The notes under the pieces: generated by a model
Databases searched by the model: none
Told to the model about the DNA's origin: nothing
What the model saw: the letters and a program-made list of their open reading frames with translations, nothing else
Program-made: the position numbers and the translations under genes
Assembly: GCF_041903675.1 (NCBI RefSeq)
Contig: NZ_JAYESI010000001.1
Location: 224,643 to 288,642 of the forward strand
DNA from: Corallococcus sp. RDP092CA
GTDB lineage: Bacteria; Myxococcota; Myxococcia; Myxococcales; Myxococcaceae
Length of the DNA: 64,000 bases
Reading direction: 5' to 3'
Shown here: piece by piece, positions 2,066 through 35,208 of the stretch
How the letters are laid out: each line of letters starts with the position of its first letter
Position numbering within the stretch: the first letter of the stretch is position 1

Positions 2066-2850
2066 TCAGGGGCGCCCCTCATCGCGCTGGAGCGCCTGCG
2101 TCAGCCGCTCCGCGAGCCGCTGGACGTGGGGCTCGCGCAGCAGCGTGTAGTGGGTGCCGGGGAGCACCTCCCGCGTCAGCGTTCCGTGGACGCGCTCGTT
2201 CCAGCCGTCGTCCCCGCGCGCCGGGGCGTCGCCCGCCTGGAGCAGGAGGACGCGGCCTTTGAACGTGCCGGGACGGTGGTGCTTCAGGGCCCGCAGGTTG
2301 CGGGTGAAGACGTGCAGGAGCGCGCGCCCTGTCGCCGTGGCGGCCTCCGGTGTCGCGAGCTGCCCCTGGTCGAGCTCGAACAGCGCGGCCACCTGGTCCG
2401 CGTCGTCCACGTCGAGCGGTACGCGGTCCTCCGTCGCCGGGCTGGGGTCGATGAGGGCCACGAGCTCCACGGCCTCTCCGCGGGCCTGGAGCTGACGGGC
2501 CATCTCGAAGGCCACCACGCCGCCCAGGGACCAGCCGCCGAGCCGGTAGGGGCCGTGGGGCTGAACGGTGCGCATGGCGGCTACGTAGAGCGCGGCCATC
2601 GCCTCCACGGAGTCGAGCGGCGGCCGGCTTCCATCGAGCCCCTGGGACTGAAGCCCGTAGAAGGGCTGCTCCGGGCCCAGCTGCTTCGCCAGCGCCGCGT
2701 ACGCGAGCACGTTGCCGCCCACCGGGTGGACGCAGAAGAACGGCCGCCGCGAGCCCTCTCGCTGGATGGGCACGAGCGGGGAGAAGACCGCGGGCGCCTG
2801 GCGCAGCAGTCGGGCCAGCGTCTCCACCGTGGGCGCCTGGAAGAGGGCGG
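2066..2850 (-). other. Thioesterase domain of the megasynthetase.
   Basis: Motifs FFCVHPVGGNVLAYAALAKQLG and GWSLGG at 2522-2536. It is the C-terminal ~260 aa. Confidence 0.85.
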
Positions 2851-34400: not shown

Positions 34401-35208
34401 AGCAGCACGGTGAAGAGGGTGGTGCCCTCCTGGGCCGCAAGGGCCGCCAACTGCTGGAGCAGCGCCGCGGGAAGCATCGCGGACAAGGTCGCGCCCCGGC
34501 TGTCCGCCCCGCTGGCGCGAGGTCGATCGGTGGGCAGCGACAGGATGGCACGTGCATCCAGCCGCGAGCGCCACGCATCGATCGCGGCCTCCAGCGCTTC
34601 CCCCTTCAACGCCTCGCGCTGCCACACGGAGAAGTCCGCGTACTGCAACGCCAGCGCGGGCAGCTCCGGCGTCCTGCCCGACGCCAGGGCTTCATAGAGG
34701 ACGCCCAGCTCATGCACCAGCAGGCCCATGGACCAGCCGTCGGACACGGTGTGATGCAGCGCGAGCAGCAACAGGTGCTCGGTGGAGGAGACGGCGAACA
34801 GCACGGCGCGCAGCAACGGACCCTGCTCCAGGTCGAACGGCTCGCGAGCCGCCTCGTGCAACTTGCGCCAGGCCTCCGCGGCATCCGCCACCGGCACCAC
34901 GGGCAGCGGCACGTCCATCTCGGGCGCGATGCGCTGCCACGGCCGTCCATCCTGTTCCACGAAGGTGGTGCGCAGCACCGCGTGGCGGCGCACCACTTCG
35001 TTCAGGCTCCCCGCCAGCGAGGGCACGTCGAGCCGCCCTTGCATGCGCACCGAATAGAGCAGGTTCAAGCCGGCCTGCCCGGGCGTCAGGCGTTCCTGGA
35101 ACCACATGCGCTCCTGACCGAACGACGCCGGGACCCGCGACGCGGGGCGACGTTTCTCGCGAAGCAGTTCCGCCAGCCGCGCGCGCTTCTGCTCAGGGGT
35201 GGAGGCCA
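2066..35208 (-). CDS. Giant hybrid NRPS/PKS megasynthetase (about 11,047 aa). Ten modules: C-A-T, C-A-T, C-A-T, C-A-T, KS-AT-ACP, C-A*(MOx), C-A-T, C-A-T, C-A(with repeat insert)-T, C-T-TE.
   Basis: A single uninterrupted ORF (track 2066..35314, 11082 aa from an upstream GTG). I favour the ATG of MASTPEQKRARL at about 35206-35209 because the minus strand reads ccAAGGAGtctccgacccATG. This coordinate is +/-1 nt: my hand count of the bases differs from the ORF-track frame. Ten HHxxxD(G) condensation motifs are present. Eight intact A domains carry TSGSTGxPKG P-loops, FDxS, NxYGPTE, GELxIGG and YRTGD. Nine carrier domains carry GG(H/T/N)SL serines (GGHSL/GGTSL/GGNSL). A KS (TACSTG) and a malonyl-type AT (GHSFGE ... 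HAFHS) are present. The C-terminal TE carries GWSLGG. No E, KR, MT or Ox domains were found. Confidence 0.95.
4500..8589 (-). other. NRPS module 9: C-A-T. The A domain is interrupted between core A2 and A3 by an in-frame low-complexity insertion of about 330 aa, encoded by a 57-bp tandem repeat.
   Basis: C has LHLHHIVSDGWS (about 8065-8095). A2 is LLAVNKAGGAFVPLDP. There are 17 copies of the (E)PVGQSDRFGxAGPxPGAR-like unit. A3 is LAYVIYTSGSTGAPKGVMVRH (about 5705-5760), then FDASIGQVL and NVYGPTECTVTTTT. T has FFELGGHSILATQVVARVR with Ser near 4572. Confidence 0.85.
5790..6736. repeat. Tandem array of about 17 copies of a 57-bp unit. Each unit contains a near-palindromic core GTCCGAC(A/T)GTC(G/C)GACAGG. 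It lies in frame inside the A domain of NRPS module 9.
   Basis: Core occurrences are near 5797, 5855, 5910, 5968, 6025, 6082, 6139, 6196, 6253, 6310, 6367, 6427, 6484, 6547, 6599, 6655 and 6712. The period is about 57 nt, or 19 codons. Flanking consensus is ..GGTTCGCGGGCC..CGGCCCGG..CCAA.. Revcomp of GTCCGACAGTCGGAC is GTCCGACTGTCGGAC (a palindrome with one central mismatch). Some units instead contain the direct duplication GTCCGACTGTCCGAC. Confidence 0.9.
8590..11849 (-). other. NRPS module 8: C-A-T. The A domain is a paralogue of the module 2 A domain.
   Basis: C has LNLHHIISDGWS. A has [36 protein letters not shown] and NGYGPTENTTFSTTY. T has FFDLGGHSLLATQVVSRIR with Ser near 8662. Confidence 0.85.
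11850..14935 (-). other. NRPS module 7: C-A-T. The A domain is EntF-like and Ser-type, and is a paralogue of the module 1 A domain.
   Basis: C has LLLHHVVSDAWC. A has [32 protein letters not shown] (about 13080-13125), FDVSVWEFFWP, VTAVHFVPSML and HNLYGPTEAAVDVTSWEC. T has FFELGGHSLLATQVAARVR with Ser near 11918. Confidence 0.85.
15190..18840 (-). other. Module 6: C domain plus a degenerate A domain carrying an inserted luciferase-like flavin monooxygenase (MOx) domain. This module has no T domain.
   Basis: C begins LSIVQERVWRLEQHL (about 18790-18830) and has CAIHHIVCDTLS. The A-like region has lost its P-loop: SPDSLAWLLPMGAGQPAWALSH stands in place of LAYxxYTSGSTGxPKG. The A5-A6 motifs are degenerate and A8 and A10 are absent; the region ends LYRTGRPVRLRADGRV (about 15185-15270). 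The ~250 nt after the A-like remnant (about 14936-15189) encode a Pro/Ala/Ser-rich linker, with no GGxS carrier motif. The next C domain begins LPLSFAQQRLWYLQEL at about 14935. Confidence 0.8.
15700..16800 (-). other. Luciferase-like monooxygenase (LLM/MOx) domain embedded in the degenerate A domain of module 6.
   Basis: LQLSLSYFANDEDSLSGPKYELLMEGARFADANGFSAIWTPERHFHSFGG... (about 16745-16770), VDVSVATGWHVQDFIFAPGNYADRRN (about 16430-16470) and ...TCLIDFGLETPVVLEGLRRL (about 15761-15826). It is inserted between the A4-like and A5-like remnants. From memory, this is the same insertion site as the MOx domains of MtaG and MelG. Confidence 0.8.
19180..19320. repeat. Two tandem copies of about 66 nt inside the linker upstream of the module 5 ACP. 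They encode APPPTRMTGPSPASLPGVEATL / APPPATMTGPASASLPSMGATA.
   Basis: The nucleotide-level duplication ..gcgttgcttccacgccggggagcgaagcgggggacggccccgtcattctggtcggcggaggtgccagc.. is followed by a near-copy. Confidence 0.6.
20690..20930. repeat. About four tandem copies of a ~60-nt unit in the KS-AT linker of module 5. They encode VLSARSPE(S/A)LEA(G/A)A(R/K)ALA-type repeats.
   Basis: The motif gcctccagggactccg(c/g)ggagcgcgccgacagcac recurs, with protein SARSPESLEAGARALASHVLADRSPEGVAAASLKLADQVLSARSPEALEAAAKQLALRVLSARSAESLEALSARF. Confidence 0.6.
22540..25699 (-). other. NRPS module 4: C-A-T, followed by an Ala/Pro/Ser-rich linker to the KS.
   Basis: C has CMHHLVSDGWS (about 25180-25210). A has [21 protein letters not shown] (about 23765-23800), [15 protein letters not shown] and NGYGPTEATVFTCCL. 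T is atypical, FFEDLGGTSLTVVRV, with Ser near 22600. Confidence 0.85.
25700..28879 (-). other. NRPS module 3: C-A-T.
   Basis: C has LTLHHIVSDGWS. A has LAYVLYTSGSTGTPKGVGITH (about 26905-26965), FDLATFEVWGALLNG and NLYGPTEATVGVTTH. T has FFAVGGHSLLATQLV with Ser near 25783. Confidence 0.85.
28880..32059 (-). other. NRPS module 2: C-A-T.
   Basis: C has LSFAQQRLWFLEQL and LTHHIASDGWS. A has LAYVLFTSGSTGTPKGV (about 30095-30160), FDASTLEIWGALLHG and NGYGPTENTTFSTTH. T has FFELGGHSLLATQVV with Ser near 28962. Confidence 0.85.
32060..35208 (-). other. NRPS module 1: N-terminal (starter-type position) C domain, A domain, T domain. The A domain is EntF-like and Ser-type.
   Basis: The C domain begins PASFGQERMWFQERL and has LALHHTVSDGWS. 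The A domain has [58 protein letters not shown] and HNLYGPTEAAVEV; these strings closely match the E. coli EntF serine A domain. The T domain has FFALGGHSLLATRLL with the Ser codon near 32148. Confidence 0.85.

Follow-up and report, generated by a model that had tools for sequence, protein, structure and literature searches.

A giant single-gene NRPS/PKS of the myxoprincomide type in Corallococcus sp. RDP092CA

Does an open reading frame of some 33 kb in Corallococcus sp. RDP092CA encode one functional hybrid NRPS/PKS, how did the pairs of similar modules in it arise, and what would it make? We addressed these questions in a window of 64,000 nucleotides (64 kb), i.e. the whole stretch of DNA that was analysed.

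Reading frame and domain order

According to the ORF list, the minus strand of the window carries an ORF without internal stop, which spans 2066..35314 when counted from the outermost GTG. Translation from the ATG at 35209 yields a protein of 11,047 aa and 1.196 MDa, with the stop codon at 2066-2068. We take this ATG to be the real start, because it is preceded by AAGGAG and because the N-terminus MASTPEQKRARL is kept in nine orthologues, whereas the sequences diverge further upstream. All domains lie in one frame, as expected from the original prediction of a single giant NRPS/PKS polypeptide of ~33 kb, and the module numbering of that prediction agreed with the domain map obtained by Pfam and self-HMM mapping.

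In total, the map comprises nine C domains, eight A domains (one of them degenerate), nine T domains, a KS, an AT, one luciferase-like monooxygenase (LLM) and a TE. Pfam scores were far above the cutoffs, and the composition is that of a modular NRPS/type I PKS hybrid. From 5' to 3' of the gene, four C-A-T modules are followed by KS-AT(malonyl)-ACP, a carrier-less C-A*(monooxygenase), three further C-A-T modules and C-T-TE (Table 1). Catalytic motifs are complete everywhere except in A6*. The motif HHxxxDG occurs in eight of the nine C domains and GGxS in all nine T domains. The KS retains its Cys, His and His residues (TACST, HGTAT, NVGHL), the AT motifs GHSFG and HAFH are of the malonyl type, and KR, DH and ER are absent from PKS module 5. 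C10 and T10 are just 25 aa apart.

Table 1. Features of the synthetase gene, with positions in the window
Feature	Position	Strand	Code, motif or basis
Whole hybrid NRPS/PKS gene	2066..35209	minus	ORF list, start context, orthologue N-termini, Pfam, domain map
Module 1, C1-A1-T1	32033..35134	minus	A1 code DVWHVSLVEK (Ser-like); C1 N-terminal, LCL-like, HHTVSDG
Module 2, C2-A2-T2	28850..31963	minus	A2 code DALWLGGTFK (Val-type)
Module 3, C3-A3-T3	25673..28777	minus	A3 code DLFLLALVGK, predicted substrate X; code position 278 depends on the alignment (T in an alternative alignment)
Module 4, C4-A4-T4	22490..25600	minus	A4 code DALYFGGVFK (aliphatic, Val/Ile/Leu-like)
Module 5, minimal PKS KS-AT-ACP	18914..22246	minus	Pfam, domain map, motif check
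C6, divergent condensation-like domain	17486..18835	minus	Family signature HHIVCDT
A6*, degenerate adenylation scaffold	15173..17434	minus	Sequence inspection
FMN luciferase-like monooxygenase insert in A6*, MupA/Atu3671 family	15740-16762	minus	TIGR04020
Pro/Ala/Ser linker, A6* to C7	14924-15172	minus	
Module 7, C7-A7-T7	11807..14923	minus	A7 code DVWHMSLVDK (Ser)
Module 8, C8-A8-T8	8549..11710	minus	A8 code DALWLGGTFK (Val-type, same as A2)
Module 9, C9-A9-T9	4460..8485	minus	A9 code DAGDLGVVTK (polar)
In-frame minisatellite in A9, between motifs A2 and A3	5765..6727	minus	TRF, repeat family D5, protein sequence
Terminal C10-T10-TE without A domain	2099..4399	minus	C10 HHTVSDG, T10 GGHS, TE GWSLG

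The N-terminal C1, from which the original prediction derived an N-acylated product, has an intact HHxxxDG motif, a Ka/Ks of 0.16-0.22 that indicates purifying selection, and an SFGQERMWF start, and is 44-50% identical to internal LCL-type domains and 45-57% to generic internal C domains. By these features, C1 resembles a common elongation domain (LCL-like) more than it does a starter C domain. No acyl-activating gene (FAAL, ACP) was found nearby in the 64-kb window, and the N-terminus of myxoprincomide is a free N-methyl-Ser.

Flanking NRPS/PKS helper genes were not found on either side of the gene within the window. Furthermore, insertion of a promoter before mxan_3779 alone increased myxoprincomide 390-fold (PMC11619377). 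Hence, we regard the locus as a single-gene locus.

An inactive module 6, in which A6* lacks catalytic motifs and a carrier, a last module 10 without an A domain, and an A9 disrupted by a repeat insert of 321 aa might mark the ORF as a decaying relic without a product. This is most improbable, however, as neither a stop nor a frameshift occurs over 33 kb, and Ka/Ks versus three orthologues was 0.05-0.37 in every domain. KS, T5, C6 and LLM were the most tightly constrained, which places the 'degenerate' cassette among the best-conserved parts. Moreover, the carrier-less C-A*(LLM) cassette is kept in all 37 family cores and in the M. xanthus-type gene that makes its compound, an orthologue (L022) has the same C-T-TE end, and the core motifs of A9 are intact around its insert.

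Relation to the myxoprincomide synthetase

A core of the same architecture was present in at least 11 Corallococcus genomes, with an identity of 82-89% (nearest 87-89%). The core (KS to LLM) was 63-66% identical to Myxococcus genes; in the comparison with other KS-AT-T-C-A(LLM) proteins, identities of 63-70% stood against 46-50%. In a neighbour-joining tree of the core, rooted on a 3,780-aa family that is 46-50% identical, the gene fell into one of three Corallococcus clades, which are jointly sister to the Myxococcus clade. Its order of minimal PKS, carrier-less C-A*(TIGR04020) and Ser module is that of the myxoprincomide type, and all Myxococcus loci, as well as a fragment from M. xanthus AM003 (L031), contain the block KS-AT-T-C-A*(LLM). 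The original prediction had tentatively named a likeness to the myxoprincomide synthetase, in which an oxidation domain comes after an in-line PKS, and this likeness is borne out by these Myxococcus genes, including the M. xanthus fragment.

The Myxococcus codes (..Leu-like, Val, Ser, X, PKS, Ox, Ser, Tyr-like..) are colinear with the published MS fragments of myxoprincomide (N-MeSer-Leu-OxVal-Ser-[Val+Unk]-Ser-Tyr). The assignment of MXAN_3779 to the Myxococcus clade rests on this colinearity and on the AM003 fragment, and other Myxococcus genomes were used for the comparison. Like MXAN_3779 of Myxococcus xanthus (MIBiG BGC0000393; Cortina et al. 2012), the Corallococcus locus has one giant gene for the whole hybrid line, recurring Ser- and Val-type modules and, as seen in the Myxococcus representatives, an in-line KS-AT-ACP and a carrier-less C-A*(FMN monooxygenase) ahead of a Ser module. 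In contrast to MXAN_3779, it has four rather than at least five modules upstream of the PKS, different codes at positions 3, 4 and 9, neither beta-Lys-like (DTENVGTAVK) nor Tyr-like modules downstream, an A-less C-T-TE end, and a place in a separate Corallococcus paralogue lineage. Its order, Ser-Val-X-X-[PKS/Ox]-Ser-Val-X-(C-T-TE), is not colinear with N-MeSer-Leu-OHVal-Ser-[Val-derived]-Ser-Tyr-.... The shared layout could be read as that of a direct MXAN_3779 orthologue, i.e. an already characterised cluster making myxoprincomide itself. These differences, together with a core identity of just 63-66% and a PKS-feeding code of DALYFGGVFK versus DG[LM]HH....K, leave that reading with hardly any credibility.

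The gene is very likely a functional single-gene myxoprincomide-type locus, one of three paralogous Corallococcus lineages, with the assembly route proposed below. The gene is genuine, and its product is probably a myxoprincomide analogue not described so far. As a natural-product target, it represents a conserved, apparently functional Corallococcus lineage for which no product has been reported and whose predicted residue order differs from that of myxoprincomide. With regard to NRPS evolution, the family offers three paralogous lineages inside one genus.

Similar Ser- and Val-type domains

The original prediction described modules 1-2 and 7-8 as a tandem duplication of a Ser-X dimodule, with A1/A7 about 80% and A2/A8 about 75% identical and T2/T8 near-identical. 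We found lower identities of 67%, 64% and 71% (74% by BLAST), respectively. These pairs were nevertheless the best A and T partners within the protein, versus 47-53% for the remaining A pairs and 49% for T1/T7. Code extraction confirmed EntF-like Ser codes in A1 and A7 (Table 1). Among the motifs said to be shared by these two domains, FDVSVWE and HFVPSML occur in both, whereas NRLLWMQ is present in A1 only (NRLRWMQ in A7). Similarly, NGYGPTENTTFSTT was found in both partner domains, whereas HNLYGPTEAAVDV is confined to A7 (A1 reads ...AAVEV). Because A1 and A7 have Ser codes and A2 and A8 have identical Val-type codes, the dipeptide Ser-Val is predicted twice, and the repeated dipeptide in the product stands as a prediction.

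An in-gene tandem duplication would account for these best in-protein pairs and for the identical codes of A2 and A8. However, the C domains are not paired. C1/C7 (44%) and C2/C8 (51%) do not rise above the C-domain background of 39-62%, and each of these domains ranks about 80th-100th among the C-domain matches of its partner. The low T1/T7 identity also argues against duplication, and the raised identity is limited to the A domains, chiefly the pocket-forming region, plus T2/T8. No DNA repeat family specific to modules 1-2 and 7-8 was found; each family spans all modules, at 60-82%. Furthermore, A7 shared 83% identity with the +1 Ser domain in one paralogous Corallococcus cluster, 73% with the corresponding domains in another paralogue lineage and 67-70% with Ser domains from Myxococcus, versus just 66% with its own A1. 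A8 was likewise nearer to its counterparts in paralogues and in Myxococcus genes than to its own A2. In neighbour-joining trees of limited loci from this one family, the clades of A1 and A7 were exclusive sisters in 0/100 bootstraps, and so were those of A2 and A8. True intragenic homogenisation in this family looks different, as two Ser A domains in Myxococcus genes are 91-94% identical. Hence, neither the C domains nor the trees support the proposed origin of modules 1-2 and 7-8 by tandem duplication in this gene, and we consider it extremely unlikely.

Judging from the sequences, A1 resembles A7, and A2(-T2) resembles A8(-T8), because they belong to old, family-wide A-domain clades specific for Ser and Val, with no in-gene module duplication. 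Across the family, all A domains with a Ser code group in a single clade at 62-70% identity, those with a Val code do likewise, and the best non-orthologous matches of T2 are T8-position T domains (73-78%). These observations would also fit a scenario in which A or A-T units, not whole modules, were duplicated or exchanged by recombination early in the family and then passed on to all lineages, and the Myxococcus genes show that A-domain homogenisation occurs in the family. For the Val pair, the T2 matches at T8-equivalent positions suggest an A-T unit rather than an A domain alone. Such an event is plausible, but we lean slightly against it. It is inseparable from shared descent of substrate-specific A clades, which are common to many myxobacterial NRPSs, because all Ser/Val A domains in the trees came from this one family. 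With the family-wide clades, one gene set offers a contrast for NRPS evolution between old, diverged same-substrate A domains in this Corallococcus gene and homogenised ones in the Myxococcus genes.

Oxidation cassette, predicted product and A9 repeat

C6 is the most conserved C domain of the protein, with 93-95% identity to the orthologues. A6* lacks the A3, A8 and A10 motifs, the C-terminal subdomain and a specificity code, and no carrier domain was found after it by Pfam or HMM. Its insert matched TIGR04020 over model positions 1-341/341 with 491 bits, versus a curated NCBIfam cutoff of 244.45, and the nearest solved structure was that of PuwE (PDB 6KET; E = 3.7e-101). Of the whole protein, this carrier-less C-A*(monooxygenase) cassette is under the tightest constraint, with a chemistry that is understood in part only.

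A luciferase-like monooxygenase in the middle of an A domain is presumably also found in the myxobacterial NRPSs MtaG/MelG (myxothiazol/melithiazol). There, we assume, the A domain is active, a carrier follows and oxidation releases a terminal amide, whereas A6* is degenerate and without a carrier. PuwE (puwainaphycin; related microginin-type PKS-Ox units) is a monooxygenase of the same family that is likewise placed between non-reducing PKS and NRPS modules, and it was assigned the 2-hydroxyl of 3-amino-2-hydroxy acyl units, i.e. oxidation of the carbon adjoining the thioester (PMC4219810). PuwE also has an aminotransferase and a fatty acyl chain as substrate, whereas here the amine would be supplied by the amino acid incorporated upstream, and the monooxygenase is set into an inactive A domain that follows a special C domain.

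MxgE (myxoglucamide, Cystobacterineae) also couples a condensation-like domain to an FMN monooxygenase, which alpha-oxidises a PKS-extended gamma-amino acid to an alpha-hydroxy/alpha-keto unit (alpha-hydroxy/alpha-ketoamide); its C domain adds no residue, yet production needs it (PMC13638107). MxgE is a free-standing didomain protein with HP in place of HH in its C domain (PMC13638107), whereas the cassette described here is in-line, retains HH..DT and contains what is left of an A domain. KR and DH are present in the mxg PKS module but not in PKS module 5. The oxidation step is also in line with the existence of a dihydro congener of myxoprincomide.

The codes read Ser-Val-X-X(aliphatic)-[ketide + oxidation]-Ser-Val-X. 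With these substrates, modules 1-4, whose domains are all present, would make Ser-Val-X3-X4. The minimal PKS, with its motifs intact, would add malonyl-CoA to X4 and thereby yield an ACP-bound beta-keto-gamma-aminoacyl chain. By analogy with its homologues, C6-A6*(FMN monooxygenase) would add no residue, and may oxidise the thioester-adjoining carbon of the T5-bound chain to an alpha-hydroxy/alpha-keto unit. The chain on T5 would then be passed to C7, and modules 7-9 would add Ser-Val-X9. Without an A domain, C10-T10-TE may add a residue loaded in trans or by A9, or merely hand the chain to the TE, which would free a linear or cyclised peptide. The 64-kb window holds no gene for a candidate transferase or A-T protein that could load T10 in trans. 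The terminal module of the syringomycin synthetase SyrE, which we take to be a C-T-TE without A domain that is loaded in trans, resembles the A-less last module found here. The catalytic role of C6 and the loading route of T10 are guesses.

It is possible, though rather doubtful, that the product is an undescribed linear peptide with two Ser-Val units around an alpha-hydroxy/alpha-keto ketide residue, that the cassette is a distinct tailoring unit, and that the A2-A3 loop is a minisatellite hot spot. If so, the oxidised residue between the Ser-Val dipeptides would be a protease-inhibitor-like warhead, and a widespread in-line tailoring unit would be formed by C(HH..DT)-dead A-FMN monooxygenase, in which the C domain has a non-condensing catalytic role, for example in chain positioning or C-C bond cleavage on the ACP-bound chain. 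In-frame minisatellites would also expand, and be tolerated, in the A2-A3 loops of the family, with 17 copies here. The findings on this synthetase leave current concepts unchanged.

The array in A9 consists of about 16-17 diverged copies of a 57-bp (19-aa) unit, EPVGQSDRFG.AGP.PGAR, without a Pfam match, and the insert might impair A9. Orthologues have 1, 1, 2, 5 and 7 copies. That a minisatellite of variable length sits in an A domain whose core motifs are otherwise intact is a minor curiosity.

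Extent and architecture of the giant gene

The window has a G+C content of ~73%, and its minus strand holds a single ORF without stops, 2066..35314 when counted from the outermost GTG. The sequence AAGGAG lies ahead of an ATG at 35209. The N-terminus MASTPEQKRARLAELLREKRRP is common to nine orthologous genes, and the sequence further upstream diverges or holds a stop. The true start is this ATG, not the outermost GTG. The product comprises 11,047 aa and 1.196 MDa. The conservation of the N-terminus in nine orthologues and this size therefore confirm the coordinates and the mass of the original prediction, which had described one 33-kb ORF without giving its strand. 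The gene is real and intact.

Pfam and a phmmer self-map were used to establish the domain map of the protein, which broadly bears out the structure described originally, although the identity figures given with it were too high.

Features of the giant hybrid NRPS/PKS gene and its surroundings (module and terminal rows from Pfam and the phmmer self-map)
Feature	Coordinates	Strand	Organisation	Length
Giant gene	2066-35209	minus	hybrid NRPS/PKS
Modules 1-4		minus	C1-A1-T1, C2-A2-T2, C3-A3-T3, C4-A4-T4
Module 5		minus	KS-AT-ACP
Module 6		minus	C6-A6*(LLM)
Modules 7-9		minus	C7-A7-T7, C8-A8-T8, C9-A9-T9
Terminal module		minus	C10-T10-TE, without A domain
C6	17486-18835	minus
Repeat, start of KS-AT linker	20699-20914	minus	in-frame, 3.6 copies	60-bp unit
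Repeat, AT-ACP linker	19187-19340	minus	in-frame tandem, 2.3 copies	66-bp unit
Repeat array in A9	5765-6727	minus	in-frame, ~16-17 diverged copies	57-bp unit
Genes between the two clusters	38715-42358	both	2OG/Fe(II) oxygenase (+); ECF sigma factor, AhpC/TSA, CMD (-); second CMD (+)
Second cluster	42558-59160	plus	hybrid PKS/NRPS, three genes
Second cluster gene		plus	KS-AT-AT-DH-ACP-ACP	1846 aa
Second cluster gene		plus	KS-(AT remnant)-ACP	1007 aa
Second cluster gene		plus	KS-AT-DH-...-C-A-T-TE	2679 aa

The GGxS serine is present in all nine carrier domains (9/9), the TE motif is GWSLG, and the catalytic Cys/His/His of the KS are all present. The AT motifs GHSFG and HAFH are of the malonyl type, and a domain and motif check found no KR, DH or ER in the PKS module. 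Eight C domains carry HHxxxD(G/A), whereas C6 deviates with HHIVCDT, and all C domains, the N-terminal C1 included, have an LCL-type (elongation) start. The repeat at the beginning of the KS-AT linker triplicates a 'LSARSPEALEAA' helix, and the AT-ACP linker with its own repeat is Pro/Ala-rich.

Ka/Ks was computed per domain against three orthologues and ranged from 0.05 to 0.37 across every domain, including C1 (0.16-0.22) and A6* (0.18-0.36), the degenerate adenylation domain of module 6 that holds an inserted luciferase-like FMN monooxygenase (LLM). Constraint was strongest in the KS, T5, C6 and the monooxygenase, with 93-96% amino-acid identity to the three orthologues.

A minisatellite splits A9 between motifs A2 and A3, with the catalytic motifs intact around it. 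The repeat unit of 19 aa (EPVGQSDRFG.AGP.PGAR) has no Pfam match and is an expanded segment of the native loop. Orthologues in C. aberystwythensis and C. coralloides have a single copy of this unit, against two in C. carmarthensis, five in C. exercitus and seven in C. interemptor. The A2-A3 spacing is 58-75 aa in 173 of the 182 A domains of the family loci, while the other nine are expanded at the identical point, A9 of the window being the most extreme (375 aa). These data suggest that local duplications arise preferentially in the A2-A3 loop and are tolerated there. Unrelated expansions of the loop were seen in homologous loci from other genomes: A7 of L003 (spacing 110) and of L023 (99), both Ser A domains of L013 (105), and L012 (99).

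Relatives and genomic neighbourhood

Species-representative genomes were scanned with the central 2,471 aa of the giant protein. The same architecture was found, at 82-89% identity, in at least 11 Corallococcus genomes, including those of C. aberystwythensis, C. carmarthensis, C. interemptor, C. exercitus, C. coralloides KYC2213, C. sicarius, C. llansteffanensis and C. terminator. The Myxococcus homologues are 63-66% identical, with the module order ..(Leu-like)-Val-Ser-X-KS-AT-T-C-A*(LLM)-Ser-(Tyr-like or Val)-(DTENVGTAVK).., which is colinear with the fragment series N-MeSer-Leu-OxVal-Ser-[Val+Unk]-Ser-Tyr published from MS/MS of myxoprincomide c-506 (PMC11619377 supplement). M. xanthus was represented by a fragment from AM003 (L031) and not by MXAN_3779 itself, the myxoprincomide synthetase of this species (MIBiG BGC0000393); the fragment was placed inside the Myxococcus clade of the core tree. 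The colinearity and this placement therefore identify the Myxococcus clade as the myxoprincomide synthetase. The originally suggested likeness to MXAN_3779, with an in-line PKS module and an oxidation domain, thus proved sound, as the Myxococcus genes share KS-AT-T-C-A*(LLM).

The core tree, built from the KS-to-LLM region and rooted on a family of 3,780-aa proteins (46-50% identical), contained three Corallococcus clades that are jointly sister to the Myxococcus clade, with the window gene inside one of them. C. coralloides KYC2213 has members of two clades at separate chromosomal sites (L023 at 5.37 Mb and L053 at 4.65 Mb). On sequence grounds, the giant gene is a myxoprincomide-type single-gene NRPS/PKS of a Corallococcus paralogue lineage, within a known family. 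Myxoprincomide-like clusters of varied organisation are known across Myxococcia (PMC10435759), and no product was detected for a 66% similar cluster of C. coralloides (PMC10609524). The literature searched yielded no Corallococcus ketoamide peptide. Corramycin, made by an NRPS/PKS of C. coralloides, was ruled out, because the FAAL, FkbH/HAD, MT, E and KR of its cluster are absent from the giant gene.

Corallococcus genomes contain up to three paralogous KS-AT-T-C-A*(LLM) synthetase lineages with differing module sets, some of whose synthetases begin with a FAAL-like domain; C. terminator supplies many of the fragments and loci. The orthologues of C. aberystwythensis (L001) and C. exercitus AB043A (L011) have an additional partial C domain between modules 1 and 2 (C-A-T-C~-C-A-T), which is missing in the window gene and the remaining orthologues.

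The product, originally predicted to be N-acylated, may carry an acyl group or have a free N-terminus. C1 is intact, constrained and similar to internal LCL domains, and a search with C1 brought up nothing but short, generic pieces of C domains with 41-57% identity. The giant gene has no FAAL, ACP or other NRPS gene beside it. The N-terminus of myxoprincomide is free and N-methylated (PMC11619377). Upstream of the giant gene are genes for a GFO/IDH/MocA oxidoreductase, a 2OG oxygenase, an ECF sigma factor, AhpC and CMD, and its downstream neighbour encodes a carbonic anhydrase. The 2OG/Fe(II) oxygenase is a candidate for serving the synthetase, e.g. in forming beta-hydroxy-Val. The redox-flavoured gene order between the two clusters recurs on a metagenome contig (L071). 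The second cluster, on the opposite strand, is unrelated and has a G+C content of ~75-77%.

The module 6 cassette and its proposed chemistry

A6* has lost motifs A3, A8 and A10 and the entire C-terminal subdomain, and its specificity code is unreadable. Neither Pfam, the phmmer self-map nor the sequence revealed a carrier domain between A6*(LLM) and C7, and the linker between modules 6 and 7 has no Pfam match. Module 6 is predicted not to be an elongation module. The inserted monooxygenase scores 491 bits with TIGR04020 (MupA/Atu3671 family), whose cutoff is 244. The C6-type signature HH(I/V)V(C/S)DT replaces HHxxxDG in 37 of 37 family cores, and is found in ~62 further database proteins with a downstream monooxygenase (set P0001-P0120).

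The closest solved structure to the LLM domain is the monooxygenase domain of PuwE (6KET, E = 3.7e-101). PuwE stands between a PKS module of the non-reducing kind and an NRPS module, and the 2-hydroxyl in a 3-amino-2-hydroxy acyl unit has been attributed to it (PMC4219810). In MxgE, a C-FMN monooxygenase, an alpha-hydroxy or alpha-keto group is introduced onto a PKS-extended gamma-amino acid, for which the C domain is essential (PMC13638107), and a dihydro congener of myxoprincomide exists (PMC11619377). Because of the PuwE structure and assignment, the MxgE chemistry and this congener, we infer that oxidation would take place on T5. Malonyl-CoA would extend the residue selected by A4, giving a beta-keto-gamma-aminoacyl-S-ACP, the monooxygenase would by analogy oxidise the carbon adjacent to the thioester while the chain is on T5, and C7 would then join the oxidised chain from T5 to Ser. 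Myxoprincomide presumably carries a 2-oxo-beta-leucine residue, which would imply the loss of one malonyl carbon; the term oxo-beta-leucine had no match in the literature searched.

The family of ~3,780-aa proteins, with the organisation KS-AT-T-C-A*(LLM)-C-A-T-C, occurs in Myxococcus, Archangium, Cystobacter and Pyxidicoccus, and more distant forms in Actinomycetota. Its presence in these groups therefore makes the cassette far more widespread than the myxoprincomide family.

Specificity codes and the paired modules 1-2 and 7-8

Codes were extracted with a GrsA fragment as a ruler, and the control code DAWTIAAICK was recovered as known. Pairwise and multiple alignment disagreed at one code position each in A3 (278) and A4 (331), where the motif-anchored MAFFT result was adopted. 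The codes of A1 (DVWHVSLVEK) and A7 (DVWHMSLVDK) differ at two of ten positions, yet both are Ser-like, and we take them to be of the EntF-like Ser type. A2 and A8 share the Val-type code DALWLGGTFK. The predicted repeated dipeptide thus stands, and would read Ser-Val twice. A4 (DALYFGGVFK) is aliphatic-like, and A3 (DLFLLALVGK) and A9 (DAGDLGVVTK) gave no substrate reading.

The pairing of these modules had been attributed to a tandem duplication, with identities of ~80% for A1/A7 and ~75% for A2/A8, and a near-identical T2/T8. Within the giant protein, we measured 67%, 64% and 71%, respectively, against 47-53% for the remaining A pairs and 49% for T1/T7. C1/C7 (44%) and C2/C8 (51%) lie inside the C-domain background of 39-62%, and the best-matching C partners are C2/C3 and C8/C9. 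A sliding window confined the surplus identity of A1/A7 and A2/A8 to the A domains; it peaks in the pocket-forming stretch, where A1/A7 hold 62-75%, whereas unrelated A domains fall to 24-29%. No DNA repeat family joins modules 1-2 to modules 7-8 specifically, as each family spans all modules at 60-82%.

The comparison was extended to 151 A, 192 C and 194 T domains extracted from homologous loci. A7 is 80-86% identical to its own orthologues, 83% to the +1 Ser domain of a paralogous Corallococcus cluster, 73% to those of a third lineage and 67-70% to the Myxococcus Ser domains, but only 66% to its own A1. Likewise, A8 is 73% identical to its paralogue, 66-67% to the Myxococcus +2 Val domains and 61% to A2. 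C1, C2, C7 and C8 retrieve one another only at ranks 80-100 of the C set. In the neighbour-joining tree of Ser domains, the A1 clade falls outside the clade of A7, its paralogues and Myxococcus, and the Val tree behaves likewise; none of 100 bootstraps, for Ser or for Val, made the two window-type clades exclusive sisters. With the C domains unpaired, A7 and A8 nearer to their paralogues and this bootstrap result, we reject a tandem Ser-X dimodule duplication in the giant gene. As judged from these comparisons, the A1/A7 and A2/A8 pairs are members of old substrate-specific A clades (A-T for Val). An ancient duplication or exchange of the A unit at the base of the family is possible.

The two Ser A domains that flank the PKS/Ox block of the Myxococcus genes are 91-94% identical within a gene (L006, L007, L027, L029), and cluster by gene or lineage, not by position. 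This pattern points to recent conversion or duplication within the myxoprincomide synthetase genes, in contrast to the window gene.
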